Assembly (NCBI GenBank): GCA_963662545.2
Contig: CAXXLL010000003.1
Coordinates: 2,112,001-2,176,000, forward strand
Direction of reading: 5' to 3'
Origin: Gammaproteobacteria bacterium
GTDB lineage: Bacteria; Pseudomonadota; Gammaproteobacteria; Ga0077536
DNA: 64,000 nucleotides
Shown here piece after piece: positions 13,917 through 34,876 of the stretch. The position numbers and the translations under genes are program-made. A model generated the notes under the pieces. That model saw only the letters and a list, made by a program, of their open reading frames with translations, was not told the origin of the DNA and ran no database searches. The first letter of the stretch is position 1. Each line of letters begins with the position of its first letter.

Positions 13917-14045
13917 TGATCGGGGCGCGGGGATGTATCGGTGGGATGCGCAGGTTCGCCGGGAGCGGTGTCGAGAGCCAGCTCCGTCGGGCTCGATTCC
14001 CGAGTCGCCAACCCAACTCCGAACAACCGCAGGCAGGCCGTCACG

Positions 14046-15719
14046 GTGAGTGATTCTACGCTTACCGATTGGCTACCGGCACTTGAGCGTGTTACGGGAA
14101 AGGCGCCCCGGCGCTCTGGGGACGAGTACCGCTCTCCCTGCCCGGCGCACGGTGGTGAGGACGACAACCTGTCCGTGACGAAGCGCGACGGGCGGGTGCT
14201 GACAACCTGCCACTCGCACGGCTGCGCGCACGAGGATATCCGGGTGGCCACGTTCGGCGTAAACGGAACGACCTATCAGGACCGGGACCGACCCCCATAT
14301 GTGAGTCCCGGTCCCGACAGGCCCTGGAACTACTACAACGCTGACGGCTCGCTACATCTGACGGTCATTCGGTCGAATACTCCGCATGGGAAACGCATTC
14401 GTCGAGAGCCGAGCGGCGTAAAACCGCCGCACCCGATCTATGCCGTGCGTGAAGTCCTGGAACGTCAAGGTGACCCAGTCCTTGTCGTCGAGGGTGAGAA
14501 GGCTGCCGACGCAGCAGCGAAGCGATTCCCCGGGTACGTCGTGACGACATCGTGCGGCGGCTCGAAGCAAGCAAAGCAATCGGACTGGAAACCCGTCGCG
14601 GGCCGCGAGGTGGTGATCTGGCCGGACGCGGACGACCCGGGCCTAAAGTACGCCGCGGACGTCGCAGCGCTTACGCGGGAGGCTGGCGCGGCAGAGGTGC
14701 GGATCGTCGAGTTGCCGGTTGGTTTGCCAGAATCATGGGATCTGGCCGACGCAGTGCCGACCGGTACCGACATCGAGCTCATCCTCGAGAGCCGGCCGAT
14801 GCTTCCGGTGGTGAGCCTGGGCGAGCTGTACGCGGAGCCCGATGCAGAGGTGGATTGGCTCGTCGACGGCCTGCTGCCGTCAGACGGTATCTCCCTGCTG
14901 GTGGCGCCGCCGAAGGTCGGAAAGTCGACCTTGGTGCGGTGTCTAGCGGTAACGGTGGCGGACGGTCGGGGGTGGTGGCTCGGCAGGGCGGTGAAGGCCG
15001 GGACTGTGCTGCACTTGGCGCTCGAAGAACGGCGGTCCACGGTGCGCGACCACTACCGTAGTCTGAACGCCCCGGAAAACAGCATCTATGCGTTCGTCGG
15101 GATGGCGCCGGCACAAAAAGATCGGCTCCGGCTGTTGCGAGAAACGGTGCGCGCTATCCGGCCCGCGCTTGTCATCATCGATCCGCTGTTCAGGTACGCG
15201 CACATCCTGGACGGGAACAACTACGCTGAGACTGTGGAGAGGCTCGGTCCCTTTATCGACCTCGCCCGGAGTGAATCAACGCATGTCCTGCTCGTGCACC
15301 ATGCGCGCAAAGGAGGTGGCGAGCATGGCGCCGAATCGCTCGGCAGTACAGGCCTATGTGCGTCTGTCGATACCTTCATGGGTCTTTCTCGAAACGAAAC
15401 CACCCGAAATTTGTACGCATTCGGCCGCGATGGGGTTGAGATCGAGAAAACCGTGCTGCGCATGGACGAGGACGGATGGGTCACGGCGGCCGGGACGAAG
15501 CATCAAGCCGGCGTGCGCGACGTCATGCGCGAGGTCCTCGACTTCATTGGCGAAAGTCCAAAACCAGTGTCGGGGCCGGAGGTCAGGGAAGGGGTTTCGC
15601 GAGGTAAGCCGGTGGTTCGAGAAGCGCTCAAGAAGCTAGTGGCCGACGGCGACCTTGAGCAGACCGGCAATGGGCCAACGGTTCGGTATTCGGCTATCGG
15701 GACCAGGACTCACCCATAG
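14046..15719 (+). CDS. Primase-helicase (Zn-binding + Toprim + RecA-like AAA_25 helicase + wHTH); start uncertain (13941 or 14046)
   Basis: CPAH..D...SV...CH..C; VEGEKAAD, WPDADDPG; Walker A APPKVGKS, Walker B IIDP; VHHARK. Confidence 0.88.
   Translation: MSDSTLTDWLPALERVTGKAPRRSGDEYRSPCPAHGGEDDNLSVTKRDGRVLTTCHSHGCAHEDIRVATFGVNGTTYQDRDRPPYVSPGPDRPWNYYNADGSLHLTVIRSNTPHGKRIRREPSGVKPPHPIYAVREVLERQGDPVLVVEGEKAADAAAKRFPGYVVTTSCGGSKQAKQSDWKPVAGREVVIWPDADDPGLKYAADVAALTREAGAAEVRIVELPVGLPESWDLADAVPTGTDIELILESRPMLPVVSLGELYAEPDAEVDWLVDGLLPSDGISLLVAPPKVGKSTLVRCLAVTVADGRGWWLGRAVKAGTVLHLALEERRSTVRDHYRSLNAPENSIYAFVGMAPAQKDRLRLLRETVRAIRPALVIIDPLFRYAHILDGNNYAETVERLGPFIDLARSESTHVLLVHHARKGGGEHGAESLGSTGLCASVDTFMGLSRNETTRNLYAFGRDGVEIEKTVLRMDEDGWVTAAGTKHQAGVRDVMREVLDFIGESPKPVSGPEVREGVSRGKPVVREALKKLVADGDLEQTGNGPTVRYSAIGTRTHP
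14276..14317. repeat. 42-bp palindromic GGGACC/GGTCCC element, copy 1 (candidate ori)
   Basis: 34/42 identical to the reverse complement of 15697-15738. Confidence 0.7.
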
Positions 15720-17771: not shown

Positions 17772-18638
17772 GTGAAACATCACTTCATACCTCAATTCTT
17801 ACTGAAAGCCTGGGCCGACACGACGGAGGACGCAAAGCTTGAGGTCTTTCGACTTGACTTGCCAAATTTTCCATCCTCTCGGTGGATGCCCGAATACACT
17901 GCATACGAAGACAACCTTTACACGTTGACTAAACCTGTAGTGGCCGGTGTTGAGCAACAAGCCATCGAGACAGACTTCCTACAGCGCGTTGATAGTGACG
18001 GTGCAATGGTGCTGCACAAGTTAAGCACTATGGGTCTCTCCAACCTGAGTCCTCAGGAATTAGGTGTTTGGGCTTACTTCATAGAATCGCTTTTGTTTCG
18101 CACTCCAGACGCTGCTTCATGGCTCCGCGCTAAGGCACCCAATAATCTAAGAGCCTCTTTGAATGAACGGCCGGAGGAGTACGATGCGATAGCGGCAACT
18201 TGCGACCCACCGACGCTCGCAGACTTTGTTGAAGAGAATTTCCCAGGATACATTGAAAATTACGGAATCATGTCTTTAGGTAAATTGGTCTGCGATCAAG
18301 AGCGCGTCGAGAAGATACTACACATGAGATGGTGGTTATGGGATTTTAGTGGGCAAAAAAACCATTTGTTTCTTGCAGATCGGCCCTGCATTTTCACGGC
18401 AAACATCGACGATCCCGACTTGATCGTTGCGCTACCCATCGGTCCATGGAAGGCGTTTATGGCTACCAAGACGGAAGGGGTTGCAAGCGCGGTCAGACAG
18501 CAACGCCGACAGGACTTGCTAATGCAGATAAACGAGAGTTCGATCGGGCAAGCGAAGCAACGTGTTTACGCACGTGACGCGTCTACACGCCGTTTCATTT
18601 CCAATCGCTTGGCCAATCAAACGTCGGTGCGGCGTTGA
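17772..18638 (+). CDS. DUF4238 domain protein (candidate anti-phage)
   Basis: HHFIPQFLLK.W, EDNLY, RTP, LADRP, LPIGP, N..S..QA...VY. Confidence 0.85.
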   Translation: MKHHFIPQFLLKAWADTTEDAKLEVFRLDLPNFPSSRWMPEYTAYEDNLYTLTKPVVAGVEQQAIETDFLQRVDSDGAMVLHKLSTMGLSNLSPQELGVWAYFIESLLFRTPDAASWLRAKAPNNLRASLNERPEEYDAIAATCDPPTLADFVEENFPGYIENYGIMSLGKLVCDQERVEKILHMRWWLWDFSGQKNHLFLADRPCIFTANIDDPDLIVALPIGPWKAFMATKTEGVASAVRQQRRQDLLMQINESSIGQAKQRVYARDASTRRFISNRLANQTSVRR

Positions 18639-18861: not shown

Positions 18862-20140
18862 TGGCCTGAGTTGGGTTTTTTGGTCCAATTTAATTGAGAG
18901 AGTCTGGCTTATTCTGAATCTTGAAGAAGGAGGAACGAATGAGCCGGAAGAGATATGCGACGGAACAGATTATTGGGATGCTGCGTGAAGCGGAGGTGCT
19001 GCTTTCGCAGGGCAAGACGGCCGGCGAGGTCTGCCGTCATCTCGGTGTGTCAGAGCAGAGCTACTACCGCTGGCGTAGGGAGTACGGCGACCTCAAGGTC
19101 GATCAGGCGAAGCGCCTGAAAGAACTTGAACGGGAGAACGCCCGGCTTCGCAAGGCAGTGTCTGACCTGACCCTGGACAAGATGATCCTTAAAGAGACGT
19201 CCAAGGGAAACTTCTAAGCCCCGCCCGCCGCCGTGCTGCAGTCGAGCATATGCAGGAAGTGTTGTCTATCTCGGAGCGCCGGGCCTGCTGGGTTCTGGGC
19301 CAGCACCGCTCGACCCAGCGCAAGGTGCCGCGGGGCCGCCCAGATGAGGATGCCCTGAGCCGAGCCATTATTGCTCTGGCAAGTGAATATGGCCGCTATG
19401 GCTACCGGCGTATCTGCGCCCTGTTGAATGAGCAGGGCTGGAGTGTCGGTGTCAGCCGGGTGGCCCGGGTCTGGCGACGGAAGGGCTCAAGGTTCCCAGT
19501 AAACAGCCCAAACGGAGCCGTCTGTGGCTGAACCATGGCTCCTGTATCCGGCTGAGGCCGAGCTGGCCCAACCACGTCTGGGCTTACGACTTCGTCATGG
19601 ACCGGACCCACGACGGCAAGGCCTTCCGCATGCTCACTGTGATCGATGAGTACACCCGCAGGTGCCTGGCCATTGAGGTGGAACGGAAGCTCCGCCATGA
19701 CGATGTCCTGGCCTGTCTGACTGAGCTGTTCACCCAGTATGGGCCACCAGATCATATCCGGTCTGATAACGGGGCCGAGTTCACAGCCAAAGCAGTGCGC
19801 AAATGGCTCCCCAAAGTAGGCGTGAAGACCCTGTTCATAGAGCCGGGCTTACCCTGGGAGAACGGCTACAACGAGAGTTTCAACGGCAAACTCAGAGACG
19901 AGTTACTCAACGGAGAAATCTTCTACACTTTGAAGGAGGTCAAAGTGCTCATCGAACAATGGCGCAACCACTACAACACGGTCAGGCCGCATAGCGCGCT
20001 GGGCTACAGGCCGCCGGCTCCAATGGCCATCTTGCCAGCACCTCACGCAGCCCATTACCCTGATCACGCATCACTGCAAAAAGGAAACCAACAGGCCAGA
20101 TTCTCTCTTAACACTTGGACCACTTAAATCTGGCTGGCCA
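18862..20140 (+). mobile_element. IS3-family element: orfA 18939-19217, orfB to 20127, extra frameshift at ~19480
   Basis: TGGCC...TGGCCA ends; AAGGGAAAC at the orfA end; [24 protein letters not shown]. Confidence 0.92.
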
Positions 20141-20435
20141 CCCGATAGTCCGCCTTTAAGCCTTTTTCTCTTTTCATGGCTTCAAATGTACCCGCCTGCC
20201 CATATCAGGGCAAAGCGACTCTGGCCGACCTCGCACTAGTTCTGCAATAATCACGAATCGTGACAACCCGCAGGGTTCGCATCGTCGGGCTACCTGCTGA
20301 ATACAATAGTCATTTATATCTGGCATAGGGTAGCTCCCTAAGCCTGACGAATAGGCGGGAACGCTTCGCATACCTGTGTGGTTGTCACAAATGGCCCGGC
20401 ATCATTTCGATGCTGGGGACAATTAGTAGCAAGCT

Positions 20436-20750
20436 ATGCGGATCTATCACTTTGCCATTTTTCTCGGCATCTTCGCTTGTGCGATCCCATCTGCGCATGC
20501 AGCGTGCAGCACCTACGACACGGACTGCGTCACCCCTCGATACGGGTACGATCGATTGGCAGAGCCCTACGACCCAAACCCGCCACGACTCTACGACCGC
20601 GAGGGAAGATACCGGGGAGACTACAGCTCGAACCGATATGACCCTGATTCGGTATCCAACCCTTACGGGAGGTATGGAAGCGAATACTCGCCCGACAGCA
20701 TCAACAACCCCATCAATGCGTGGGAGGACTACGAAATTAGGCGGGAATAG
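20436..20750 (+). CDS. Small secreted hypothetical protein
   Basis: Signal peptide; YDPDSVSNPYGRYGSEYSPDSINNP. Confidence 0.7.
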   Translation: MRIYHFAIFLGIFACAIPSAHAACSTYDTDCVTPRYGYDRLAEPYDPNPPRLYDREGRYRGDYSSNRYDPDSVSNPYGRYGSEYSPDSINNPINAWEDYEIRRE

Positions 20751-20760
20751 GGGACAGAGG

Positions 20761-21312
20761 ATGGGAGGCCTTGAAAATTACCATCGGGAAATTACCGCGA
20801 GAATTCGGGCGGGCAAATTGCGTTTGGAAGTGATCAAAGAGGCAGGCGCAGATCCTAATTCTGTCGCCTTCTCGAAATTCTGGACGCTTTTTTCCTTCTA
20901 TGCTGCTGCTGGGAGCATAGGCATCGTCTGGAGATTGAATGGTCCGTGGTGGTGGTACCTCATTGGCGCTATTTGTGCGTTCTTTTGCGGCTCAGCGATC
21001 GCATTCATACTAGGGAAGAGAAGGGCAAGGCGATTAGCCATGGGGAAGCCGCTCGCCTTCGATAGCCTCTGGACAGAAGGCGTCCTAGCACTCGAACTGC
21101 CAGAATTAGACTCCCTCGACGAAGAGGGTACATGCGTGTCTCCCGATGATGATTACAGGGAGTTCGTGGCCCGACATTTCCTTAAAGCACCTCAAACTCG
21201 TATTGACGGTCTACAGCCCGCCATCATCGAATATCCAGACGGCACGGAGGTGGAAACGCTCGTGAGAGTCTGCCGCGGCCACGACTCAACACACAAGAAG
21301 GAGGATTCTTAA
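20761..21312 (+). CDS. Hypothetical 2-TM membrane protein
   Basis: ATG 10 nt after the upstream stop; two hydrophobic helices. Confidence 0.6.
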   Translation: MGGLENYHREITARIRAGKLRLEVIKEAGADPNSVAFSKFWTLFSFYAAAGSIGIVWRLNGPWWWYLIGAICAFFCGSAIAFILGKRRARRLAMGKPLAFDSLWTEGVLALELPELDSLDEEGTCVSPDDDYREFVARHFLKAPQTRIDGLQPAIIEYPDGTEVETLVRVCRGHDSTHKKEDS

Positions 21313-21344: not shown

Positions 21345-21596
21345 TTGCGCTCGAACGAGAATTTGCGTGGAGGATTGGGAGAGGTCACGGTTCATTCCGC
21401 TGAAGGGAAACCGGCTGACTTGGTTTTAACAGTTGACGTAGATTCACCCTTCGACGGCGAATGTAATCGTCATACATTCCTGACGAATGCGGTCCGGCTT
21501 TTGGAATTGGCGTCCCGCATACAGAACACGCTTCTGCCGAAGAGTGAGATTCTTGAGGCTCTAGAACGGATTGAGTCGAAGCTTGATTCGACATAA
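21345..21596 (+). CDS. Hypothetical protein
   Basis: Co-oriented ORF only. Confidence 0.4.
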   Translation: MRSNENLRGGLGEVTVHSAEGKPADLVLTVDVDSPFDGECNRHTFLTNAVRLLELASRIQNTLLPKSEILEALERIESKLDST

Positions 21597-21748
21597 CAGG
21601 TTCCCTCAATTGTAGTTGATAAAAGTCGCCATGCGACGCTACCGTTCTCATGCGAATAGAAGCGAGCGGTTCCTCAAAACCGCCAATGCACCCCGACCTC
21701 GATGGCCTTGCGCTCGAAGTAGTAGTCGTACGGGTTAAGCGCCCAGGG

Positions 21749-24220
21749 TGTTGATTTGCACTGAAAACTGACCCACCTGAGGCCGATATTTGCATCGAAA
21801 TTTGACCCACGACTAGACACTGACCTGCCCGATATCCGGGCAGGAGACAAAGGAGTGATCGACGTGGCGTTATTGAGTGTGATCCGAAGGTGGCGGTGAC
21901 GGGACGGACTCCCGATCCGCGAGATCTGCAGACGAAGCGGATTGTCGCGGAACACCATCCGTAAATATCTGAAGAACAAAGTCGTTGAGCCGAAGTAGGC
22001 AACGCCGAAACGAGCCAGCAAGCTTGATGCGTTTGAGAACAAGCTCGGACGTTGGCTGGAGACAGAGCCCGGTAAAGGCCGCAAGCAGCGCCGTAATCTG
22101 CGGCAGATGTACGGTGACCTGGTCGCATTGGGTTACCGGGGCTCCTACGATCGGGTAGCTGCTTTTGCGCGAGACTGGCGTCGCCGGCAACGGGAAGTGG
22201 CCCGGATTGCTGGCGGTGGTACGTTCGTAGCGTTGGTATTTGCGCCGGGCGAGGCGTTCCAATTCGACTGGAGCGAGGATTGGGCTGTGATCGGCGGCGA
22301 GCGTATGAAGCTCAAGGTCGCGCACTTCAAGTTGGCCCATAGTCGGGCGTTTGTCCTGCGCGCCTACCGACAGGAAACCCACGAGATGTTGTTCGATGCG
22401 CACAATCATGCGCTGCCGGTCTTGGGCGGAGTACCGGCCCGGGGCTTGTACGACAACATGAAGACTGCGGTCGATAAGATTGGCCGCGGCAAAGCGCGAA
22501 CGGTCAACGCGCGCTTCATCGCCATGGCCAGTCATTACCTGTTCGAGCCGACGTTCTGCAATCCGGCGTCGGGCTGGGAGAAGGGCCAGGTCGAGAAGAA
22601 CGTACAGGATGCACGGCGTCGGGTGTGGCAGGACGTGCCGGCGTTTGCGCGTCTGGCGGCGCTGAATGACTGGCTAGAACAACGTTGTGTGGCGCTGTGG
22701 CACGCGATAAAACACCCCGAGCAGAAAGATCGCACGAGAGCCGAGGTGTGGGCTGACGAGCAGCCCCACTTGATGCTGCTGCCGCCACCCTTCGACGGCT
22801 TTGTCGAACACACCAAGCGCGTTTCACCGACCTGCCTGCTTGCGTTCGAGCGTGACCGCTACAGCGTCCCGTCGCCGTTCGCTAATCGGCCGGTCACTCT
22901 GCGTGTTTACGCTGATCGGCTGATCGTGGTGGCTGAAGGCGAGGTCATCGCCGAGCATGCGCGGTTGATGGCGCAGAGCCACGACCGCCCAGGCCGCACG
23001 GTGTACGACTGGCGGCATTATCTCGCCATCGTACAGCGCAAGCCCGGTGCCCTACGCAACGGTGCACCGTTTGCCGAGTTGCCGGAAGCCTTCAAACGCC
23101 GGCAGTCGATTGTGGTTAAGCGGCCCGGTGGTGATCGCGAGATGGCCGAGGTCCTGGCTTTGGTATTGCATCATGACGAGCAAGCGGTGTTGTGCGCGGT
23201 CGAACTTGCGCTCGACGCCGAGGGCGTCTCCAAGCAACACGTTCTGAACGTATTAGCGCGTCTGCTCGAGCCGGCATTACCTGCGCCAATCGATACCCCA
23301 GGGCACCTGGCGTTAGAAGCTGAGCCAGTCGCCAACGTTAGCCGTTACGACGGTTTACGGGAGGTGGACCATGCATCCTGAGGCGATGATTGCGACACTC
23401 AAATCGCTCAAGCTGTTCGGCATGGCACAAGCCATCGACGATCTTGCCCAACAAAGTTCACCGGCCTGGCAAGGTGCTGAGTCGGTCCTCGACAGCCTGC
23501 TCAAAGCCGAGGTGGCCGAGCGCGAGGTGCGCTCGATTAACGACCAAACCAAGGTTGCGCGCTTCCCCGTCCATCGTGACCTGGTTGGCTTTGAGTTCCA
23601 CGAGAGCACGGTCAACGAGGCCCTGGTGAGGTCGCTGCATCGCGGCGACTTCATTGATGATGCGCACAACGTCGTGCTAATCGGCGGACCGGGAACGGGT
23701 AAAACCCATCTCGCTACAGCCATCGGCTGACAGGCGATTGTGCACCAACATCGACGCGTTCGCTGCTTCTCGACTATCGAGCTGGTTAACGTACTGGAGC
23801 AGGAGAAAGCCCGTGGCAAGCCGGGACAAATGGCTCATCGGCTGGTCCACACCGATCTGGTTGTGCTCGACGAACTCGGCTCTCTACCGTTCAGCCAGGC
23901 CGGTGGTGCGCTGCTGTTCCACTTATTGAGTAAGCTCTATGAGCGCACCAGCATCCTAATCACGACCAACCTGAGCTTCGCCGAGTGGGCCAATGTGTTC
24001 GGTGATCCCAAGATGACGACGGCGTTACTCGACCGGCTGACTCATCACTGCCACATCGTTGAAACCGGCAACGATAGCTACCGCTTCAAACACAGCTCGA
24101 CGAAGAAAACCAAGGAGACAAAAACTAGAAAATCCAAGAACACTTGAGCCATACTCTGGCTCTTCCAGGTGGGTCACTTTTAAATGCAAAACCTGGGTCA
24201 GTTTTAGGTGCAACTCAACA
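21749..24220 (+). mobile_element. IS21-family element, degenerate (stops in istA; TGA at 23728 in istB); no target duplication
   Basis: TGTTGA...TCAACA ends with internal repeats; FQFDW, YDNMKT, EKGQVE; [19 protein letters not shown]. Confidence 0.93.
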
Positions 24221-24391
24221 CCGTGGTCTCCCGTCGCTTTTTATACCCTCCGCCTTTACCCGATAATCAGCACGCGATACGGCGGAGACGGCTATCAAAT
24301 CGTTTAGCGGTAATTCAAGCGCGCACGCCAATGCGCGGTCGCTACGGATAGGTTTGTGCCTATAACAAGGTTGAATTTCGGAGGGTGTCAT
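24221..24391 (-). pseudogene. Retron-type reverse transcriptase N-terminus (57 aa), truncated by IS21
   Basis: MTPSEIQPCYRHKPIRSDRALACALELPLNDL...DYRVKAEGIKSDGRPR; YR..KxDGxxR resembles a retron RT N-terminus; overlaps the HTH gene end; not in the ORF track. Confidence 0.7.
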
Positions 24392-24665
24392 CTTCTAGAA
24401 AGGTGAGACTCGATAAGGCTAGGCGTTGGGCCAAATCTTCATCAATGCCCGATAGCTCGCCCTTATCCACCGCCAGAAATATCAGAATGCTAAATGGCAT
24501 ATTCAGCGCGTGGGCGATCTTCTCAACCGTACTTAAGGTCGGGTCGCGCTTGTTCTTTTCCAATAGAGACACGTACGACACGGAAAAACCCGCGCGGTTG
24601 GCGAGGGCAGCTTGCGTCATCCGACGCTGACTGCGGCAAAGTTTAAGTGCGCGTCCTATATCCAT
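24360..24665 (-). CDS. XRE/Cro-C1 HTH protein (retron type VI-like)
   Basis: IGRALKLCR..R.MTQ..LA..AG.SVSYVSLLE..KRDP.LST. Confidence 0.9.
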   Translation of the reverse strand: MDIGRALKLCRSQRRMTQAALANRAGFSVSYVSLLEKNKRDPTLSTVEKIAHALNMPFSILIFLAVDKGELSGIDEDLAQRLALSSLTFLEDDTLRNSTLL

Positions 24666-24704
24666 GCGAAAACCAAAGATTAGAGATTTAAAGGGTCTGT
24701 GACA

Positions 24705-24953
24705 TCATTTGAAAAAGCGGTCTACCAGGTTTGCAATATTCGTCACGGCCGGAAGCAGACGACCGAGGACATCCAAGGCCCGTTGCTTCTGTTTTGGACT
24801 GAGTTGCGAACTCTGTGTTCCTGTTTTTTCCTTGCGCTTGAGCTCGTCTATGACGCTATCAAGCTCATCCATCATGTCGCGTTCTATCTTGCCATTTACG
24901 TGTGCCCGAAATTCTTCGAGCACCTCGAGCGTGTTTTTAACGTACTTCGTCAT
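24705..24953 (-). CDS. Small helical protein (candidate type VI retron small-protein effector)
   Basis: 82 aa, AAGGGA RBS, amphipathic C-terminus, directly upstream of HTH-RT. Confidence 0.7.
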   Translation of the reverse strand: MTKYVKNTLEVLEEFRAHVNGKIERDMMDELDSVIDELKRKEKTGTQSSQLSPKQKQRALDVLGRLLPAVTNIANLVDRFFK

Positions 24954-25343
24954 TTACACGTCCCTTTGGTAGCGACGCAAAATTGCGCCTGCCCTGTCGC
25001 AAATCTGGTGTCGATACGGAAGCAAGAAAGAACTGCAGACCCAAAAATCCCGGGCTGAACCTGCCCCTATCTATCACCTGGTTGCCAAGTACTTAGCCAG
25101 GTGCAAGAGGAGCTATTAGCCGCAAAGGAGCAATTACCAACTCAACTCGCTCAGTTACCCATCGCCGGATATCGGCTATCCGGGTTGCAGGTGCCGAAGA
25201 GCTTGCCCGATAATCAGGCCGTCTTTGCCAAGGACACTCTACCGCCCGGTCCGGCTTTCGGGTCTAACCCCCGTAAGCCTTGGCCGGGGGCCTCACAGAG
25301 CGCCCGTTACTGAAGTTGGTCGGTTGGCGGTCCAACCAGCCCG
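24954..25343 (-). ncRNA. Candidate retron msr-msd-like structured RNA
   Basis: Nested complementarity 25336-25343/25051-25058 and 25314-25320/25136-25142, several internal hairpins, TATAAC just upstream. Confidence 0.55.
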
Positions 25344-25519
25344 TTATACCGAGTGGGTTGCACCGATGCGCGTTTATGCAGGGATGAAGAGACAGCGTGA
25401 AGCTAACGGACGACAATCAAGCGAACCTCGATGCGATTATCGAAGTGTTAGCGCTTCGGGTGCCAAAGGACAAGATCGATTCCGCGTTCGCGTTACGCTC
25501 GATTGGACGGCGGCTTGTT

Positions 25520-25755
25520 TCAAGAGCGGCACGCTGACAATGTCGCGCGCGCGTTACGCGACGCTGGCGAATGCGAAAGCCGTGTCGTGCGCCGTCGAAG
25601 CGCTGCGCGCGTTAGGTCACATTGTCGAAGTGGGCGAACTGAACGGCAAGGCCGTGCTAACCGTCGATGGTGAGGCGCTTGTGTTGGATAGCGGCTTGAT
25701 CGATGAGCAACTACGCCGCGCGGCGGCACAATGCGAAGATGCGCGCGTTCACTAG
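25520..25755 (+). CDS. Small hypothetical protein (start uncertain)
   Basis: 3' part of ORF 25225-25755 looks protein-like. Confidence 0.35.
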
Positions 25756-25785
25756 GCACGCTACGCGGCTGTTCAAATATCTGCT

Positions 25786-26238
25786 TTAGCTATCGCGCTG
25801 TTGTTCCAGATCGAGATACTTGAAAACGCCGTAGCCGGCGCGGCGGTTGTCGTTCACATACCGAATCGGCACGAGTTGAAGACCCTCCCATTGCGCATAT
25901 TCGGCAAACTCGCGGGTCCCTGTCAGAAAAAGCCCAACGGACACGCGCTGACCTGTCGTTGTCTCGAATCGGCAGTCATACCCGGCTGTGAATCGAGAGT
26001 CTGCGGGCGAGAACACGTTGGATAACCACTTGATAACGTTCGAGCGTTTCTCCGTGCGCGCGGAGCGCTCGCGGTAGTCGAGCGCGTTGGCTTCGGCGTA
26101 TGCCTTCGCGAACGCTTCGCAATAGCTGGTAACGGATACGTTGTCCCGTTGCGCGACGGCGACGACCGCAACCGCGATGAGGCCGAGGGCGCATAGCCGT
26201 CGTGCCCTACTGCCACCGCGCATATTAGACGTGCTCAA
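25786..26238 (-). CDS. Secreted hypothetical protein
   Basis: Signal peptide; starts 1 nt after the upstream stop. Confidence 0.6.
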   Translation of the reverse strand: MSTSNMRGGSRARRLCALGLIAVAVVAVAQRDNVSVTSYCEAFAKAYAEANALDYRERSARTEKRSNVIKWLSNVFSPADSRFTAGYDCRFETTTGQRVSVGLFLTGTREFAEYAQWEGLQLVPIRYVNDNRRAGYGVFKYLDLEQQRDS

Positions 26239-26239
26239 T

Positions 26240-26752
26240 CTAATCCGCGAGATAGCGCCTGCACGCTAAGTCAAACTCGTGTCCGTCCTCTTTCCGGCGC
26301 GGATAGTTGCGATAGTCCTGCCACAGCCCGGCTTCTCGCGCTATGCCCCTTTCCTCGCCGTAGTGATACCGGAAACGGGTCTTTGCCCATGAACTAACAG
26401 GCCCGTAGACGTGCTCCAGGTCCCGGCAGCCAGCATCACAGAGATCCGACACATTCAGAAGTGTTTGAACAGATGAGCAGCTAAGATATTTGACAGCCTC
26501 GTCCAATTCATCGAATGATGGATCGCGAGTTAAATCAATTCCGCTTCTGGCCGCGCGACCAAGAAGATCGACGAGCTGCCCTACTGTAGAGGCATAGACC
26601 GCGTTGGCCCCATTGGTCAGGTTGACAACGTCGACTGTGCAGCGCGAGTAACACTCGCTGACCTTCTCGCGGCCGGCTTCGGCTTTGGTCAGATCGTGCG
26701 CGTGCGAAACGTACGCGATCGCGCAGAGCGCCATGATTGAAAAGTGTTTCAT
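26240..26752 (-). CDS. Secreted Cys-rich hypothetical protein
   Basis: MKHFSIMALCAIAYVSHA signal; CYSRC, CDAGC. Confidence 0.65.
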   Translation of the reverse strand: MKHFSIMALCAIAYVSHAHDLTKAEAGREKVSECYSRCTVDVVNLTNGANAVYASTVGQLVDLLGRAARSGIDLTRDPSFDELDEAVKYLSCSSVQTLLNVSDLCDAGCRDLEHVYGPVSSWAKTRFRYHYGEERGIAREAGLWQDYRNYPRRKEDGHEFDLACRRYLAD

Positions 26753-26781
26753 GTCGGGTGTCCTGTAATAAGCCAATAGAG

Positions 26782-27586
26782 GGCATTGTCAGAGTAAATG
26801 GGCTTGAGCTGAAAAGTAAGGCCTCGTAGCCTCCGGTGATGCACAATCCTTTCCGTTATTTCAACAGTTCGCCCGAAGTGATCCGCTTCGCGGTGATGTT
26901 GTATGTCCGATACCCTTTGTCGCTGAGACAGGTCGAAGATCTCCTGTTCGAGCGCGGCATCGAGATCTGCCATGAGACCGTGCGGTATGGGTGGAACCGC
27001 TTTGGTCCGCTGTTTGCCGCGGAGATCCGGACACGCCGTGTTCATCATGGATCCTATTCGAACTGGCGCTGGCACCTTGATGAAGTGTTTGTCCGCATCA
27101 ACGGCAAGACACATTACCTATGGCGTGCCGTTGACCATGAAGGCGAAGTCCTTGAGGGTTTTGTGACGAAACGGCGGGACCGCAAGGCTGCGCTTGAGTT
27201 CCTGAAGGGCACGATGAAGCGTTATGGCCGGCCGGCTTCGATGGTCACGGATAGGCTACCGTCATATCGTGCTGCGATGAAGGTGATCGGCAACGAAGGT
27301 TGCCAAGAGACCGGGCGTTGGCTGAACAACCGGGCAGAAAACTCACATCAGCCCTTTCGAAGGCGGGAAGGGGCAATGGCGCGGTTCAGAGACATCAAGA
27401 CCCTACAGAAATTCGCCGCCGTCCATGCCTCGATCTATAACCATTTCAACCACCAACGCCACCTCAACCGCCGCGCTATTTTCAAACAAGCCCGAGCCGC
27501 TGCCCTGGCTGAGTGGTGTCAACTTGCAGCCTAAAAGGCCTCGATTGCAGGTTCTACCGGTCCGACCCAGTTAGTCTGACAATGCC
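26782..27586 (+). mobile_element. IS6-family element; transposase 26836-27534
   Basis: GGCATTGTCAGA inverted repeats; WHLDEVFV, YLWRAVD, LNNRAENSH. Confidence 0.95.
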
Positions 27587-27722: not shown

Positions 27723-28523
27723 CTAGTTTATCGTCCTGGTCGCAATGCCTTCCAGGCAGGCCCTCCACCGAATGGTCGGCCAATCATTGCTCTGAACCGC
27801 AAGGTTCCGGTCGATGTAGAACAGGAACAGATCCCGCACACGTCCGGGCCTGGTGATCCTGTCGCATTCGGCCATCGCCTCATCCGAAACCGCCGCCTCG
27901 TCAGCGTACTCGCTCCACAAGGATGTGTTTTGCAACATGTCCGACACCAGCAGGAACGAATCGATGTCCTCATTTCGCTCAACGAGCGAGGCCATCGTCT
28001 CGACGATCGGCGACACGTCCGCTTCTTCCCGGTCCCGCAGTTCATCGAGTATGCGTCTGAGCCGGTTCAGGAATGTCGCAAACTCGATTTCGACGACTCG
28101 GGGATTCTCGTAGAGCAGATCAGCCATCCTCCCCTGCTTGGGTATGCACCACGAGCGGCCGGATTGGCTCGGGGCCTCGTGTTCCGATTCGGGCAGTCCA
28201 TGGATGGACAGTTTCTGCAGGAATGGCGCCCGCAGCGTGTCCCTGGTCCATTCCTCGATTCTCTCGAAGGCCTTCGCTCCGTCCTCCTCCGATATCTCGT
28301 TGGAGGTGTCAACGAGGATTACCGTGTGACCGGGTATCCGTATTCCTTCCCGCACTTGCGCTCTTGTACCCGTCGGACAATACCCGTTGGCCTCACGCAC
28401 CCGAAGTTGGTCGGCGTAGTTCAATCTGTATCCGACGAAGACCACCACCACACCGAGCAACACGATAACCGAGACGAGTCCTATTACCTTGAAGAGGTGG
28501 GGCGACTCGCTGCCGGAGCTCAT
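27723..28523 (-). CDS. Membrane-anchored VWA-like protein
   Basis: N-terminal TM; VILVDTS, SPIVE, LLVSDMLQN (MIDAS-like). Confidence 0.7.
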   Translation of the reverse strand: MSSGSESPHLFKVIGLVSVIVLLGVVVVFVGYRLNYADQLRVREANGYCPTGTRAQVREGIRIPGHTVILVDTSNEISEEDGAKAFERIEEWTRDTLRAPFLQKLSIHGLPESEHEAPSQSGRSWCIPKQGRMADLLYENPRVVEIEFATFLNRLRRILDELRDREEADVSPIVETMASLVERNEDIDSFLLVSDMLQNTSLWSEYADEAAVSDEAMAECDRITRPGRVRDLFLFYIDRNLAVQSNDWPTIRWRACLEGIATRTIN

Positions 28524-28528
28524 CGGTG

Positions 28529-29902
28529 TCAGGGTTTCCTGTCCCGGTTGGTCGGCTCGAGGACGACGGTTTCATATCGCTTCCACAAATCGGCCACCTT
28601 TGCGCACTCCTGTTCAACGCTGTCGAAGAATTCCTCCTGCCCCGAATCCCGCCACTCGGTCACAATTGCATCCGCCTCGTCCAGGATGTGCCAATCCGCA
28701 GGTGTAGCCGGAAACGACCAGTCGATATTGACGCTTTCCCTGTGCACGTTCAGCATCCCCCGGTCAATCTTATCGGCGTTGTGTTTGTTGTGTGCGGCAA
28801 TGAAATCGGCTTCTACGAGATCCAGATACACCCTTTGCTCCCAGCTTTCCCTGACGTCCTCCAGAACGTTCCATGCACCTCGCCGCTTTCTGTCGAGTTC
28901 CTCAATCCATCCCGCAACATCGGCCCTGACACCCTTCGTGAGTTGCGTCCGGTAGCGCCCCGACAAAGTTGTGTAGCTCTCCTTGATATCCTTCCATTCG
29001 CGGTCCAGGCGCCTTTCCGCCTCTTCGCGCTTGATCCCCGTTCGCACGAAGGTGAATCCCTTGTAGAAACCCACGGCACAGAGCGCCAAGCCCAGCACGA
29101 AGAAGAGTAGAGACTCCAGTTCCCACGTCGCCGGATTGAACGAGATGCCCGCTACGAGCTCCCGCACCGATGCCAGGTCGATTTCGGTTGCCTGCAGCGT
29201 TTGCCGTTCTCTTTCCTCGATCAGCCTCGCGAAATTCTCCCGGTGACGTCCCACGATGAGGTTCAGACCCGTAGCGAACACCAGCAGCAAACCACACGCC
29301 GATAGAAAAGGCACGCGTGATTTCGAGTGGCGCCGCACCGCCGACAGCGTCAATCCACCTCCTGCGCCGAGGGCGCCCACGTTGATGGCGGACACGAGCA
29401 CTGCCGTGATGAAAGCACCAACCAGGCCGGTCGACAGGGCGCGGGTCAGGAGGGTTACATTTGCCAGGGCCTCGACAACGATGCAGACCACGAGCAACGC
29501 AATGAGCTTCAACCACTGGTACGCCGTTGGGGGATCGATATCGCTCGCCGGAGGCAACTCTGTCCGAGCTTTCCGATGCTGCGAGCGGCGGTGCTGGAGG
29601 GCCTTGAGTTCCTCTTCGGCGTCGATTGTTACCTGTCGAGACCCCTTGGTTCGTTTGAAATCCCAGCCGTTCAGCGGTTGGCCGATTTCCTTGGCGACGG
29701 TACCGAGGGTGCGGTTGACCAGGTCGCGATAGGCCAGCGCCAAAGAAGTGAGGAGCTTGTGGTGGGCCGGCTTCCAGTCTCCATCGGCGTGGATGGCGAT
29801 CTCGGCCGGATCGAGGCCCAGAGACCGGGGATCGGTCGGCCAGGAGGCCGGCGGGGTCAGGCCCGATCCGGCGGCTTCAGGCGACCCGTTCGTTGGTTCC
29901 AA
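28529..29902 (-). CDS. Four-TM coiled-coil hypothetical protein
   Basis: AGGAGG RBS; about 4 TM helices between charged helical regions; 5 nt from the next gene. Confidence 0.75.
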   Translation of the reverse strand: MEPTNGSPEAAGSGLTPPASWPTDPRSLGLDPAEIAIHADGDWKPAHHKLLTSLALAYRDLVNRTLGTVAKEIGQPLNGWDFKRTKGSRQVTIDAEEELKALQHRRSQHRKARTELPPASDIDPPTAYQWLKLIALLVVCIVVEALANVTLLTRALSTGLVGAFITAVLVSAINVGALGAGGGLTLSAVRRHSKSRVPFLSACGLLLVFATGLNLIVGRHRENFARLIEERERQTLQATEIDLASVRELVAGISFNPATWELESLLFFVLGLALCAVGFYKGFTFVRTGIKREEAERRLDREWKDIKESYTTLSGRYRTQLTKGVRADVAGWIEELDRKRRGAWNVLEDVRESWEQRVYLDLVEADFIAAHNKHNADKIDRGMLNVHRESVNIDWSFPATPADWHILDEADAIVTEWRDSGQEEFFDSVEQECAKVADLWKRYETVVLEPTNRDRKP

Positions 29903-30297: not shown

Positions 30298-33148
30298 TAA
30301 ATAGGTGTTCCAAAAACTCGATCAAATAAAAAGAACTCAGGTGACATTCAGAGATCAGAGGTTGTATCGAGCAATCTACGTTCCCGAAAGAGGTCACCTG
30401 AGTATGGATAGTTTAGTGTCATTGACGCGCTCACAGAAACGTCGCTTTAAGCGGTTGATTCAACGCAGCGATAACGGGCGGGTGGTTCGCCGCGCTCAAG
30501 TCCTGTTGCAGTTAGCTTCAGGCGTCTCACCGACGGCCGTGTCACGCAGTTTGTCGGTCGCGCGTTCAACGGTTTATCGATGGGTCACGCAATTCCAGAC
30601 CGCGGGTGAAGCCTTTCTCGAGGCGTGCGGCTCGGGCCGGCGGGCGTATACGGTGGATGACACCCTGTTGGAGACGCTCGCCGAGTTAGTTGAGCAGCCG
30701 CCCAGTGATTATGGCTACCTGCGCAGTACGTGGACGAGCGAGATGCTGGCCGAGACGCTGAATTCGTTGCTGTCACGGCCCATTCACGCCTCTACGGTAC
30801 GTCGCTGGCTAGTTAGTGTCCGTCCATAAACAGGCATTTTCTTCGATGGGCACGGAGAAATCGAGGTGTTGAAAGTAGGTTGTTGGAGCGGTAGCGGCGG
30901 TTCGGTGGGGGTCGAAGGGCTCTTCGAGCGTAATTGTGAGTACGTTCGCCGGCCGCAGAGCGCTGCAACCCAAAGTCGCCCGTTCGACGATATCGAGGAG
31001 GTCAGTTAGTGCGAGTGAACGTCGCTATTCGAGTTGATAGCGCGCGAGCAGGCTGAGGTTGTAGGCGACCACAGAAGACCACACGTAGGCTTCGAAGTGC
31101 GGCAGGCTCTTCCAGGTGCAACGTGCCAATCCGTATGCACGCTTCAGGCAGGAGATACCGGCCTCGATGCCGGCGCGGAAGTTGCGCAAGCGTCGATAGA
31201 CCCACTGACTCTTGACCATGTCGGCGATCGCGAGCCCGCGCTTCTTGTGGAAGGCAACGTCTTCGATGCCTTCTGCTTTCGCCGCCCGGAGATTGTCGAG
31301 GCTCGCATAGCCGCCATCGGCGGCGACCTGTCGTGGCATCGTCCCGTAGTGTGTTCGATGCCGTTCGAGCATCGGCATGAAGCGCTGACTATCGACCGGA
31401 TTGCCTCGCTCGATGACCACGTCGAGGATGAGGCCACTGCGCCCCGAAGCCAGATTGATTTTGTGTCCGTACTGAACGTCGCGCGCACCCTTTATGATGA
31501 TGTCGGTATGCGGCTCGAACAAGCTCACGCACTTCTCGCTCGCGGGGACCTTCTCACCGCCGAACACCCGCCGCTCAGTTTGCGAAATCACCTGCAGAAC
31601 AAGTGTTTCGTAGTGCGCTACCTGCGCTAGCCAGTCCGGCAGTTCAACGCCGGTGACGCCCGGGCTCAGCAGCTGCTCACGTACCCTCGCTACCGCTTCC
31701 AAGGTTGAACGCGTCGCCCCAATCAAATCGCGATACAGACGTTGGCGTTGCTTCGCACCACGCGCATACCACAGCGCCCGCGCACGCTTCTTCGCCAATC
31801 GAGTGTGGTTCACGAAGCACAACTCCGGCGCGCCAGGCAACTCGCGCGCCTGTGCGAGCAGACGAACCACAACACGCACGCCATCCCACAGCAGATGACT
31901 GTCGCTCGGCGCGTGGATGGCACTGTCCGTTACCGTGCTATCAATCCGTACACGCTGTGCCGGCTCAATGCGCGTCTCTTTCGCCGTCGCCAGCAGGGCG
32001 CGATGAATAGACTCCCACGTCGATACCTGGATCGCCGAGACCACCCGCTGTAAGGCAGACTTCTTCGGACGTTCATTACCCGGCAACCGGGCGAAGGCCT
32101 GAAAGCTCGCCGAGTCCTGCAGGTGAAAGGCCAGCTCCTCGTAACTCAATTGCCGGTGCTGCTTGAGCACCGCGCAGCGCAGCACCGACTCCGCCGACAG
32201 TCCGCGTCGACCGGTGGGCTTCAAACCCCGCCGACACAGATCGTTCATGACCGGCGTGAGGACCTTGGGGTGAGCATCGAGCCACTCGGACATGCCCTGC
32301 AGCTCTCGCCCCAGGTCATGGTCAGCAAACAGCTCGTATATACTCGCTTGGGCCGTGCGTTTCTGACGCATTCCCCCTCCTGTGGTGTCGATGATTGTGT
32401 GGAAAATCAGAGGTTTGAAGTTCCATTAGATCACGACCCACCGGAGGTTTCGATCCCTTAAGCGACAAATTTTCCTTTTTATTTCAACCGCATCGCGTTT
32501 AGGGATGCACACTAGTTAATTTGGGATTCGGCTGGCGTCGTGCTCGTCCGACCTTACATCTGCGCGACCCACGGGCAGCCACGCGCCTGAAAGCCATTCA
32601 TCGTGCGTTGTCTCGAGCCCCATCGGGCATGAAGTGTTTTACGCCGATGAGGTCGATATCGACCTCAATCCCAAAATCGGTTTCCTTTGGTCTACTCAAG
32701 GTTGTCAACGTGCCATCCCCACGCCTGGGCAAAACCGGAAACGCTATCTGGCGGGCGCGCTGCACGCACGAACCGGTCGCGTTGCGTATGTCGAGGGCAC
32801 ACGGAAAAACAGCGACCTATTCCTTTGCCTGCTCGACCACCTGCGGCAAACTTACCGCGCCGCGCGTCGAATTATCTTGATCGTGGATAACTACATCATC
32901 CACAAATGTCGCTTGGCACACGTCTGGCTAAAGCACAATCCGAAATTCCGATTGCTGTTCCAGCCGGCCTATCAGCCCTGGGTCAATGACATTGAGAAAC
33001 TCTGGAAACAGTTGCACGACAATGTCACCCGGAATCATCGTTACTCGACCATCGACCGTCTGATGGACGCAGTACGTGCCTTCATGCGTGCGGCAAGTCC
33101 ATTCCCGGGAAACTGCCCGAGTGTCGCAAGATTTGGATCACCTATTTA
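30298..33148 (+). mobile_element. IS630-family element (tnp 30404-33149), interrupted by ISNCY and frameshifted at ~32620
   Basis: TAAATAGGTG(T/A)TCCAAA inverted repeats at a CTAG/TA target; YADE, VDNY.IHK, IEKLWK. Confidence 0.9.
30816..32512 (-). mobile_element. ISNCY/IS5-like element; intact transposase 31025-32371; 6-bp TSD TAGTTA
   Basis: GTGTCCGTCCATAAAC / GTGTGCATCCCTAAAC ends; removal restores the IS630 frame RRWLVNLGFGWRR. Confidence 0.92.
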
Positions 33149-33550: not shown

Positions 33551-34005
33551 CAGATCCTCCCCTGTGTCTGCCAGCGATGCAGCCCGCCTTGATCTAGAAC
33601 GTCCACGAGATTCCGTTTCCCGCGCTGGCTAAGAAGCCAGTCCTTCGCGCCCTTGCTTGCGCCACCGCCGTCCAACACGATGATCGCCGGAAACGCATCA
33701 TGGGCTATGCACTCGACCTCGAACGGGAACTTCTCGTCCACGCTCCCAGATGACGCTTGCCACTTGCACTGAATAACCAGGCAGTCGGGCCACTTCTGCG
33801 GGTGATGCAGGATGAAGTCTACGCGGCGCTGTTTCGCATAAATATTCAGCCCGGTTGGAACCTGTGCTGCGTAGATGGGCTGTTGCAGGCACCTTGCGGC
33901 AAAGAATCGCGCGGGCGTGATGCGCTCGTAATCTTCGGACAGGAGATCCGCAACGCTAGTTTCCAGCGCCCGGCCGCGCCGATTGGCCCGGGTACCTCTA
34001 GTCAC
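33550..34005 (-). CDS. PD-(D/E)XK nuclease, probable type II restriction endonuclease
   Basis: G..LE, VDF, IQCKWQ.SSGSVDEKFPF. Confidence 0.8.
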   Translation of the reverse strand: MTRGTRANRRGRALETSVADLLSEDYERITPARFFAARCLQQPIYAAQVPTGLNIYAKQRRVDFILHHPQKWPDCLVIQCKWQASSGSVDEKFPFEVECIAHDAFPAIIVLDGGGASKGAKDWLLSQRGKRNLVDVLDQGGLHRWQTQGRI

Positions 34006-34876
34006 GGATCAGCAGTTCCGGCACGCTGTCCCTGCCGTTGACATCCGAGTTGATGTTGCGCGGCGCGGTAACGTCAACGATTTCGTAATTGGCATACAGG
34101 CTGCGCATCGAGGACGTGTCCGCATTGCTCAGCAACACGCCCGCTCCCTCTCCCACCCAACCGTCGGCTGCGTCCCGTAACCGGCGCTGCGCGTCACCAG
34201 AAAAGCCCGCCGCCTGATAGCCGGTGAATGTGCCATCGTAGGGCGGGTCGCAGTAGATCAGATCTCCGGCGTCCGGCTGGACCACGCGGCCGAAGTCGCC
34301 AAGCTGAATCTGTGCACGGATCAAGGCCTTGCTCGCCTTACGCAAGCGTTCCGAGTTGCAGATATCCGGTTTCTTGTAACTGCCTTCGGGCACATTGAAT
34401 TTTCCGCTCTTGTTCACGCGGTACAGACCGTTGAAGCACGTTTTATTGAGATAGATGAATCGGGCGGCTACCTCGACCGGATCGGTCGGCTCCGATTCGC
34501 GGACGCGGTAGTAGTAGGTCTTGCCGTCTTTGTACTTTTTCCCCGCGCGCCGCCGGTGCGCCGTCTCATGCTGCGCCAGACGCGCTATCAGGGCCTCTAC
34601 GTCGTTCTTGACTATCTGATAGGTGATCATCAGCTCTTCATTCGTATCGGACAACACGGCCTGCTCGATGCGTTTGGCAAAGGTGAAGAACACGGCCCCG
34701 CCGCCCACGAACGGCTCCCAGTAGGTATTCACCTGTTCCGGGAAGTGCTGCGCTATAGCCGGGATCAGCACCCGCTTGCCACCAGCCCACTTGACGAACG
34801 GCATGGCCGCAGCAGGGCCGATATGCGGCGCGGTGGTGTGCTTGAGGACGCGCTTCAGGGGTACGACGTTACTCAT
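33998..34876 (-). CDS. Dam-family (D12) DNA adenine methyltransferase
   Basis: FVKWAGGK, EPFVGGG, YLNKTCFNGLYRVN, CDPPY; ATGA overlap with the transposase stop. Confidence 0.92.
   Translation of the reverse strand: MSNVVPLKRVLKHTTAPHIGPAAAMPFVKWAGGKRVLIPAIAQHFPEQVNTYWEPFVGGGAVFFTFAKRIEQAVLSDTNEELMITYQIVKNDVEALIARLAQHETAHRRRAGKKYKDGKTYYYRVRESEPTDPVEVAARFIYLNKTCFNGLYRVNKSGKFNVPEGSYKKPDICNSERLRKASKALIRAQIQLGDFGRVVQPDAGDLIYCDPPYDGTFTGYQAAGFSGDAQRRLRDAADGWVGEGAGVLLSNADTSSMRSLYANYEIVDVTAPRNINSDVNGRDSVPELLIRD

Follow-up and report, generated by a model that had tools for sequence, protein, structure and literature searches.

Genes at the locus

We analysed a stretch of 64,000 nucleotides (nt) from a Gammaproteobacteria bacterium (GCA_963662545.2, contig CAXXLL010000003.1, positions 2,112,001-2,176,000 of the forward strand), which is called the window below. 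On its minus strand lie, one after another, a non-coding leader, a gene for a small protein (SP), a gene for a helix-turn-helix (HTH) protein and the first 57 codons of a reverse transcriptase (RT), the last being cut off by an insertion sequence (IS) of the IS21 family. What kind of locus is this? A preliminary description of the same DNA, drawn from the letters alone, had proposed a type VI retron, and this identity is supported by matches to the SP_VI and HTH_VI families, by the RT_VI stub, by the gene order of the family and by the IS21 cut.

The SP gene (24705..24953, minus strand) encodes the helical protein of 82 amino acids (aa) that had been noticed at this place. By its family it would be the toxin of a type VI retron: it matches the PADLOC model SP_VI (PDLC02969) with an E value of 1.3e-8, residues 4-76 falling on positions 5-76 of the 77 in the profile. 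It stands upstream of the XRE HTH of the preliminary description, a putative repressor or antitoxin of 101 aa (24360..24665, minus strand), and the two genes are separated by 39 nt. The HTH protein matches the PADLOC model HTH_VI (PDLC02926) over its full length (profile positions 2-89 of 92, E 1.5e-26), and Pfam gives it only the generic domain HTH_3 (E 7.5e-13). In the lineage of the window, three proteins related to the SP have 76-90% identity to it, lengths of 76-96 aa and an invariant C-terminal stretch, and the relatives of the HTH protein reach 92% identity at the same size of 101 aa. Both genes look whole, as had been supposed of an effector and an HTH protein left intact after loss of the RT.

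Would the two proteins bind each other? When they were folded together, with a 49-row alignment for each protein, the complex score was 0.80, compared with 0.00 for the best of three controls. The runs shared at least 93% of contacts, and the pLDDT (predicted local distance difference test) of the partner was at least 80. The mark used for the complex score is reached by 58 of 80 solved complexes and by 2 of 110 mismatched pairs, counts that are only rough when our own alignments are used. The predicted interface brings residues 55-91 of the HTH protein, beyond its DNA-binding domain, together with residues 51-81 and 4-18 of the SP. The model supports a putative direct binding of HTH and SP. 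By sequence search no solved structure related to the SP was found, and the HTH profile matches only generic HTH chains among the solved structures, such as SinR, C-proteins, HipB and HigA.

The third gene is a fragment. An open reading frame (ORF) of 58 codons (24391..24215, minus strand) overlaps the 3' end of the HTH gene by 32 nt; its last codon and its stop come from the IS, so that 57 codons (24221..24391, minus strand) belong to the retron and end on a codon boundary. With an RT profile built from 13 neighbouring RTs, the window was searched as 2,130 six-frame pieces. The 57 codons match profile positions 6-60 with E 3.9e-6, the next best piece has E 1.7, and no further RT piece is present in the window. 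The stub alone matches none of the PADLOC models. When the 57 residues were searched against a large protein collection for longer proteins only, two clusters of 323-324 aa (P0001 and P0002) were found, which are 86-88% identical to the stub over the whole query and whose best PADLOC family is RT_VI (E 5e-64 and 3e-65). The overlapping ORF does therefore align to RT N-termini, as the preliminary description had expected of it. The intact RTs of the lineage (P0001, P0002, P0004 and P0005) read LTDD at the catalytic motif, and the other RT_VI relatives that were aligned read Y[VIAG]DD or FVDD.

Could all this be no retron, that is, a generic regulator of the XRE family, a small ORF arisen by chance and another chance ORF abutting an IS? 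The HTH protein does match many generic HTH families, and HTH_VI itself is a permissive model at a loose cut-off. In a scan of 400 genomes of the same class (one, G283, left unscored; another, G176, unpublished and entering only the tally of 400), 149 genomes match at E 1e-10 through generic HTH proteins, and so do 10 of the 14 control genomes. When a full-length match at E 1e-20 or better is demanded, only 14 of the 400 genomes remain, our own included, and no control genome (0/14) matches at E 1e-19. In all 13 others an RT-like ORF lies next to the HTH gene, which is the neighbour that had been predicted for HTH homologues. Five of these RTs were compared with PADLOC, the best family being RT_VI in 4 and RT_V in 1, and SP_VI was found for 3 of the 5 upstream small proteins examined. 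A metagenome scan, queried with a 4-sequence HTH alignment, added 80 loci at 44-61% identity, with a matching SP in 71 and a matching RT in 71, always in the order SP-HTH-RT that the preliminary description had named as typical of type VI retrons. Given the matches to SP_VI, HTH_VI and the RT profile, and the 86-88% identity of the stub to RT_VI proteins, the explanation by a generic regulator and chance ORFs is refuted, and we regard it as next to impossible.

The insertion element and the loss of the reverse transcriptase

The IS21-family element occupies 21749..24220 on the plus strand (2,472 bp). Its borders were set by its terminal inverted repeats and by other copies in the genome, which place the junction with the RT stub at 24220/24221. 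It carries degenerate genes for IstA, with rve and Mu-transposase C-terminal domains, and for IstB: IstA has in-frame stops at 21897 (TGA) and 21996 (TAG), and IstB has one at 23728 (TGA). No target-site duplication is present at this element (flanks CCAGGG and CCGTGG) or at the two other full copies.

Where is the rest of the RT? The sequence across the far end of the IS is not RT. In the own assembly (5.58 Mb in three contigs, completeness 96.85%) the RT_VI model has no match at E 0.01, and a search with P0002 gives a match limited to residues 1-59. Neither the window nor the assembly has a complete RT, one in which the palm domain and the catalytic xxDD motif would be present, and about 265 RT codons are gone from the latter. 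Their loss may have come about through a deletion next to the IS and mediated by it, or else through recombination of two copies of the IS.

An allele without the element can be found in public data. Two contigs of 304 nt from run X8 cover 24221-24350, differing from the window at 1 and 8 of 130 positions, and extend past 24221 by about 174 letters of non-IS sequence. A 30-letter consensus of this extension was reverse-complemented and translated by hand; in the frame of the RT it yields ten residues that coincide with P0002 residues 58-67. Because these contigs cross 24221 without the IS and continue as P0002 does, they represent an uninterrupted allele, and the claim that an IS21 element had cut the RT is borne out. 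What the parts are, where the break lies, that the remainder of the RT is absent and that unbroken relatives exist can all be read directly from these comparisons.

How old is the damage? The IS copies in the genome differ at 8-12 of 2,472 bases, i.e. they are at least 99.5% alike. Together with the near-identical empty-site allele in X8, this favours a plain explanation, in which the locus is an inert wreck: the IS came in recently, a silent or neutral locus was left behind, and decay has not yet reached SP and HTH, with no addiction involved. On the other side, the stops at 21897 and 23728 are two nonsense changes that one sister copy lacks (copy C3:2947951 has TTA at both places) and the other sister copy has, the TAG at 21996 being common to all three. 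Since the two changes are absent in one sister copy and present in the other, this IS lineage is itself decaying, which speaks against an inert wreck.

The leader and its predicted fold

According to two reports, the hybrid RNA of type VI retrons has the ribosome-binding site (RBS) as well as the start codon in stems, a 3' end that folds back, conserved 7-nt direct repeats, a pair of inverted repeats (IR1 and IR2) and a 5' stem-loop (10.1101/2025.10.22.683967; 10.64898/2026.04.27.721009). In the window the leader of the predicted hybrid RNA is placed at 24954..25343 on the minus strand. It has 390 nt, in agreement with the non-coding length first estimated, and the ORFs in it have no family match. 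The leader, like its 5' 290 nt, is single copy in the own genome, so that the 5' block is no separate repeated element. Folded alone it has a z of -2.0 (equalled by 2 of 100 shuffles), and the 701 nt of leader and SP together have a z of -3.8 (equalled by none of 20).

Pair probabilities were computed on a 686-nt RNA. There a 5' domain (25051..25343, minus strand) is predicted to be closed by an outer stem of CGGGCUGG (25343-25336) and UCAGCCCG (25058-25051), with seven Watson-Crick pairs and one G-U pair, and to contain a long hairpin at about 25305-25232, a CCGGAUA hairpin and a CACCUGG hairpin. The five pairings listed in the preliminary description all exist where they were quoted: besides the outer stem they are GGUUGG/CCAACC (25337-25322), ACCAACU (25320-25314) with AGUUGGU (25142-25136), CCGGAUA/UAUCCGG (25183-25165) and CACCUGG/CCAGGUG (25103-25075). 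The predicted pair probability is 0.95 for the core of the outer stem, 1.0 for CACCUGG, 0.8 for CCGGAUA and 0.37 for ACCAACU/AGUUGGU. The significance attached to them stands only in part, for long-range stems are no commoner here than in shuffled sequence. The leader has 6 perfect 7-bp stems, compared with 5.1 on average in dinucleotide shuffles (193 of 500 reach that number); for local 6-bp hairpins the figures are 5 and 1.4 (24 of 500). The genes and the break lie far outside what chance would give; the stems, taken alone, do not.

Is the leader related to those of other type VI retrons? Relatives were taken from a set of 93 loci (80 metagenome and 13 genome loci). Over the whole leader, BLASTN and nhmmer against the 93 loci gave nothing significant, family profiles of the regions -240..-120 and -360..-240 have no match in the window leader, and Rfam, searched with 23000-27000 at E up to 1, gives no family. 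What does match is a profile, built without the window, of the final 120 nt in the leaders of 67 relatives: it falls on 25049-24955 (about 95 nt) with E 7.5e-4, the best match in the window and in register. The last 100 nt or so of the leader are, judging from this profile, homologous to the hybrid RNA of the family. Two similar stretches of the leader on the minus strand, UGCUCCUUUGCGGCU (25128-25112) and UGCUUCCGUAUCGAC (25021-25005), resemble a conserved motif UCC(U/G)U-UCGG/UCGAC that follows IR1 in relatives; a second match of the profile has E 9.2, which is not significant.

Within and beside the homologous part lie the candidate signals of the family. A repeat that the preliminary description had not listed brackets the SP gene: IR1 (25036..25051, minus strand) ends 82 nt before the AUG, IR2 (24683..24699, minus strand) starts 5 nt after the SP stop, and they are predicted to pair in 7+7 bp around a small internal loop with a pair probability of 0.76-1.0. 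In 68 non-redundant loci, the 200 nt before the AUG were compared with the 35 nt after the SP stop, and in most of them the best helix has one arm that ends 57-97 nt ahead of the AUG and another that begins shortly after the stop. The repeats of the relatives are lineage-specific in sequence with a common CUG/CAG centre. The median helix score is 28 for pairs from one locus and 19 for pairs across loci, and in 44 of the 68 loci the score of the own arm is reached by no more than 6 of 67 foreign arms. We take the presence of a bracketing repeat at the family's positions in the window as moderately supported. RNAduplex, run on the 250 nt upstream against the SP-HTH spacer, gives the window a z of -0.32 (17 of 40 shuffles equal it), which is not significant; many relatives are significant.

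The sequence GGGCAGG occurs twice, at 113 nt (copy 1, 25060..25066, minus strand) and at 41 nt before the AUG (copy 2, 24994-24988). The second copy is held in a hairpin before the RBS (24972..25000, minus strand) that aligns to a hairpin of the relatives. The 7-nt direct repeat of relatives reads CGACUGG in 20 of 61 loci, and in the loci listed its copies stand some 100-143 and 36-57 nt ahead of the AUG. Both copies in the window fall within these ranges, for which our own arithmetic gives a chance of about 0.06; a stretch of 400 nt would by chance contain about 5 repeated 7-mers. Even the lineage of the window has thus retained the repeat around the SP gene and the stem-loop upstream of the RBS. 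In a thermodynamic prediction on this one sequence, the Shine-Dalgarno GGG and the AUG of SP are paired with codons 7-9 (0.86-1.0). These predicted and candidate features correspond to those given for the hybrid RNA in the two reports.

Near the 5' end, the hairpin GGUUGG-ACCG-CCAACC (25322..25337, minus strand; 6 bp, 4-nt loop, pair probability 0.3-0.44) resembles in shape and place the conserved 5' stem-loop of the family. In relatives a 7-bp hairpin opens the leader at 258-444 nt before the AUG, and the motif UGYUCUUUAA comes after it; this motif is missing after the hairpin of the window. A covariance model of the relatives' hairpin (R1, 38 relatives) has 94.7% paired positions and two-sided changes at 7 of 7 pairs, figures to which the choice of sequences with a hairpin finder contributes, the pairing being partly by construction. 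Covariation or a conserved position is therefore seen in part for elements other than the five listed stems, namely the repeat around the SP gene and this hairpin family, whose model does not match the window. With 384 nt between it and the AUG, the hairpin of the window is inside the range of the 38 relatives, and the suggestion that this RNA is a long one does not hold.

Transcription and genomic surroundings

Is the remnant expressed? RNA libraries of two studies hold contigs that cover 24863-25013 (151 nt, 0 differences) and 24967-25138 (176 nt, 4 differences), i.e. parts of the leader and the start of SP. They give a weak hint of expression, and as weak a point against an inert wreck, because they attest presence only, may stem from contaminating DNA and come from runs that were chosen for holding the stretch. 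The HTH gene, the stub, the IS and the upstream genes are without RNA contigs, which does not mean that they are silent. A further contig (188 nt, run X10) fits only 25245-25316 (72 nt, 8 differences), is unlike the flanks and may be a related RNA of another organism.

In relatives such as L013, L078, L105, L118 and about two dozen others (judged by eye), a TTGAC box resembling a -35 element upstream of the leader is overlapped by a long palindrome, TTGACTGNCAGTCAA or TTTCACTGNCAGTGAAA in type, some 55-75 nt upstream of the 5' hairpin; this palindrome is likely an operator of the HTH protein. In the window two ORFs in different frames diverge from the leader (25397-25755, plus strand), one of 46 aa and one of about 71 aa within a 176-aa ORF. 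Neither has a Pfam match, and they may represent a single gene with a frameshift. About 60 nt separate the start of the first from the 5' hairpin, which leaves little room for a retron promoter.

Around the remnant the DNA forms an island with many mobile genes (13941-35065 of the window). The island contains genes for an AAA_25 protein (13941-15719) and a DUF4238 protein (17772-18638), a fragment of an IS3-type integrase (19597-20127), transposase genes of the IS6/IS240 (26836-27534) and DDE_Tnp_1 (31025-32371) types, and a gene for a D12 adenine methylase of the Dam type (33998-35065). For the flanking ORFs at 20410-21312, 21345-21597, 25786-26776 and 27723-29902 Pfam gives nothing. HTH_VI is found at E 1e-19 in 0 of 80 other genomes of the own order, and in none of 60 genomes of relatives. 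Because the order genomes lack it and transposase genes of several families surround it, horizontal acquisition within the island is the natural reading. A region so full of transposase genes would suit an inert wreck as well.

Relatives and other decayed copies

How often do such retrons lose their RT? At least 1 kb past the HTH gene is available in 65 of the 93 loci. The RT looks intact in 54 of these and is broken in 6, and the other 5 belong to another system. Among the broken ones, the RT lies in two frames in L066, L074 and L085, is short in L072, is cut at profile position 145 in L083, and is a stub of positions 7-43 in L125. L125 (135-1100) has a broken SP frame besides its RT stub, and this decay of SP beside that of the RT is what the explanation by an inert wreck would expect. 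L083 (832-2833) points the other way, for its SP and HTH are whole beside an RT cut by another IS21-family element. There the opposite strand carries IstB and IstA, the RT is adjoined by the end nearer to IstB, which begins with TGTTG, and the element has no nucleotide similarity to that of the window and the same relative orientation. In L127 (583-1071), with less than 1 kb of flank, RT positions 7-82 are followed by a convergent ORF that by eye resembles a serine-protease gene. The lineage of the window itself contains a 142-aa C-terminal RT fragment, an 86-aa HTH protein and a 76-aa SP (P0003, P0009 and P0014), each listed with a longest contig of 28,089 bp and, judging by this length only, presumably on one contig.

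The five loci with another system (L070, L106, L108, L109 and L123) have an HTH_VI-like protein (E 1e-30 to 1e-33 with our own HTH profile), no SP before it and no RT after it. An ORF of about 350 aa and a further ORF follow the HTH gene; the former is an AAA ATPase in L070 (Pfam, E 2.2e-29) and, by eye, in the other four. This looks like a different system with a common HTH protein. Further afield, a search of genome contigs with the HTH protein alone gave only generic HTH proteins at 34-41% identity among the matches listed, plasmids gave no DNA match and at best a protein match of 42.8% identity, and viral contigs gave no match.

These cases invite a wider scenario, in which RT loss is a recurrent end-state: the SP-HTH pair, within its RNA, would persist after the RT as a selfish module of addiction, and these RT genes may be a preferred target of IS21-family elements. 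It is suggested by the IS21-family cut in L083 with the same relative orientation, by the RT stubs of L125 and L127 and by the C-terminal RT fragment in the lineage of the window, and we hold it as unlikely. If it is true, RT-less orphans would be natural tests between an SP held by HTH, as described for Retron-Sen3, and RNA repression released by multicopy single-stranded DNA (msDNA), as described for Retron-Vpa2.

What remains of the retron

We consider it probable that a horizontally acquired type VI retron has lost its RT here, and that the remnant is dead as a defence and persists as a pair of SP and HTH resembling a toxin-antitoxin system. The reading follows from published experiments in which an inactive RT is non-toxic but defenceless, SP with HTH is harmless and loss of HTH is toxic. 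In the report on Retron-Vpa2, a dead RT is not toxic, and deletion of the leader or the HTH mutation R7D is toxic (10.1101/2025.10.22.683967). For Retron-Sen3, SP and HTH are harmless in the absence of RNA leader and RT, toxicity appears when HTH is lost, and a catalytic mutation of the RT does away with defence (10.64898/2026.04.27.721009). Silence of the effector without the RT, which the preliminary description had put forward as the point of interest, is therefore not new.

The course of events may have been as follows. An IS21-family element would have come to lie after RT codon 57, the other 265 or so codons being lost; with the RT absent there would be no msDNA, and phage defence would be lost, as is to be expected because both type VI retrons studied need an active RT for defence. 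The HTH protein would hold the SP through its C-terminal extension, as reported for Retron-Sen3. The RNA fold would hide the RBS and start codon of SP and act as a second brake, and IR1-IR2 would link the SP coding region to the leader, both as reported for Retron-Vpa2. Loss of HTH would then be harmful, and this would favour retention of the SP-HTH pair after the loss of the RT.

Might the remnant still defend the cell, by an SP-HTH-RNA system that senses phage without reverse transcription or with an RT from elsewhere in the cell? The report on Retron-Sen3 lends some room to the first idea, since activation is uncoupled from ssDNA (single-stranded DNA) levels and the HTH-SP pair is independent of RT and RNA (10.64898/2026.04.27.721009), and that on Retron-Vpa2 to the second, since msDNA supplied in trans can turn on SP (10.1101/2025.10.22.683967). 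Still, the catalytic mutant of Retron-Sen3 loses defence, and the RT_VI model, which cross-matches other retron RTs and would probably catch them, finds nothing in the own genome at E 0.01. Such a working defence is very improbable.

Several points weigh against a defence-dead, retained SP-HTH pair. Compared with the SPs of the sampled loci, that of the window reaches no more than 31% identity, the 76-90% identity being confined to the three lineage proteins, so its function is carried over from Retron-Sen3 or Retron-Vpa2 by family and not by close kinship. The expression, toxicity and defence state of the remnant are likewise read from sequence and from published analogues. The IR1-IR2 duplex (-20.0 kcal/mol) is equalled by 76 and 51 of 2,000 shuffles (2.6-3.8%), its ungapped core is ordinary in that 24 of 67 foreign arms score as high, and model R1 has no match to the window hairpin (25337-25322) at E up to 10. 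A promoter and terminator scan gave nothing on the minus strand upstream of the leader, and no operator-like palindrome is to be seen by eye at 25391-25420, both of which also favour an inert wreck. Finally, SP and HTH may be intact only through the youth of the damage, given the differences of 1/130 and 8/130 in the X8 allele and of 8-12/2,472 among the IS copies. The inert wreck is thus the main rival, and sequence alone cannot separate a young wreck from a kept pair. The HTH-SP interface, which is still predicted with high confidence, speaks against it, and on balance we judge it unlikely.

If the remnant is what we propose, what is it good for? It is a divergent and naturally RT-less addition to a retron type for which descriptions of the mechanism date only from 2025-2026, and the intact sister alleles in public data permit a side-by-side test. 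It also holds a lesson for annotation, as a stub of 57 codons beside an IS can identify an anonymous pair of small protein and HTH genes. At the same time it is a decayed copy of a known system, and the RT-less state has already been made and tested in the laboratory according to the same reports, so that it poses no new question.

Comparison with known systems

The insertion element resembles other members of the IS21 family in its istA gene (rve and Mu-transposase C-terminal domains) and istB gene, and in terminal inverted repeats that start with TGT and have repeated sub-terminal motifs. It differs in having in-frame stops in both genes and no target-site duplication.

Type II toxin-antitoxin systems with an HTH antitoxin (HipB, HigA) and the SinR-SinI pair offer a parallel for the proteins, in that an HTH of the Cro/C1 type is predicted to hold a small partner by means of its extra C-terminal helices. 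The likeness to the HTH of the window is the HTH domain in common. Unlike in these systems, the toxin gene of the window comes first and lies inside a retron RNA, and the SP family is without a solved relative.

Retron-Vpa2 of Vibrio parahaemolyticus is similar in that a single RNA joins a structured leader to the coding region of SP, stems enclose the RBS and the start codon, and the 3' end folds onto the leader (on the window side these are predictions). Of its 7-nt direct repeat one copy precedes the fold-back arm and one is within the stem-loop upstream of the RBS (10.1101/2025.10.22.683967), an arrangement to which the two candidate copies of the window correspond. The repeat itself is GGGCAGG in the window and CGACUGG in many of the relatives compared here. 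The predicted RNA of the window is longer, about 661 nt (25343-24683) against about 470 nt in Retron-Vpa2 (10.1101/2025.10.22.683967), and, without an RT, the window would make no msDNA to turn on translation.

Retron-Sen3 of Salmonella enterica differs from the window in that the window RT has 57 codons, that the 5' hairpin of the window fails the model of the relatives' hairpins, and that the distance from hairpin to AUG is 384 nt, compared with a conserved element within about 280 nt in the cl2075 group (10.64898/2026.04.27.721009). In other respects the two are alike. Both have the order leader-SP-HTH-RT with overlapping HTH and RT genes, a small SP that is helical and hydrophobic at its C-terminus, a stem-loop close to the leader's 5' end, and IR1 and IR2 around the SP gene with IR2 just past the stop. 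The HTH protein of Retron-Sen3 neutralises its SP without RT or leader (10.64898/2026.04.27.721009), and it is to this pair that the SP and HTH proteins of the window may, by analogy, be likened.

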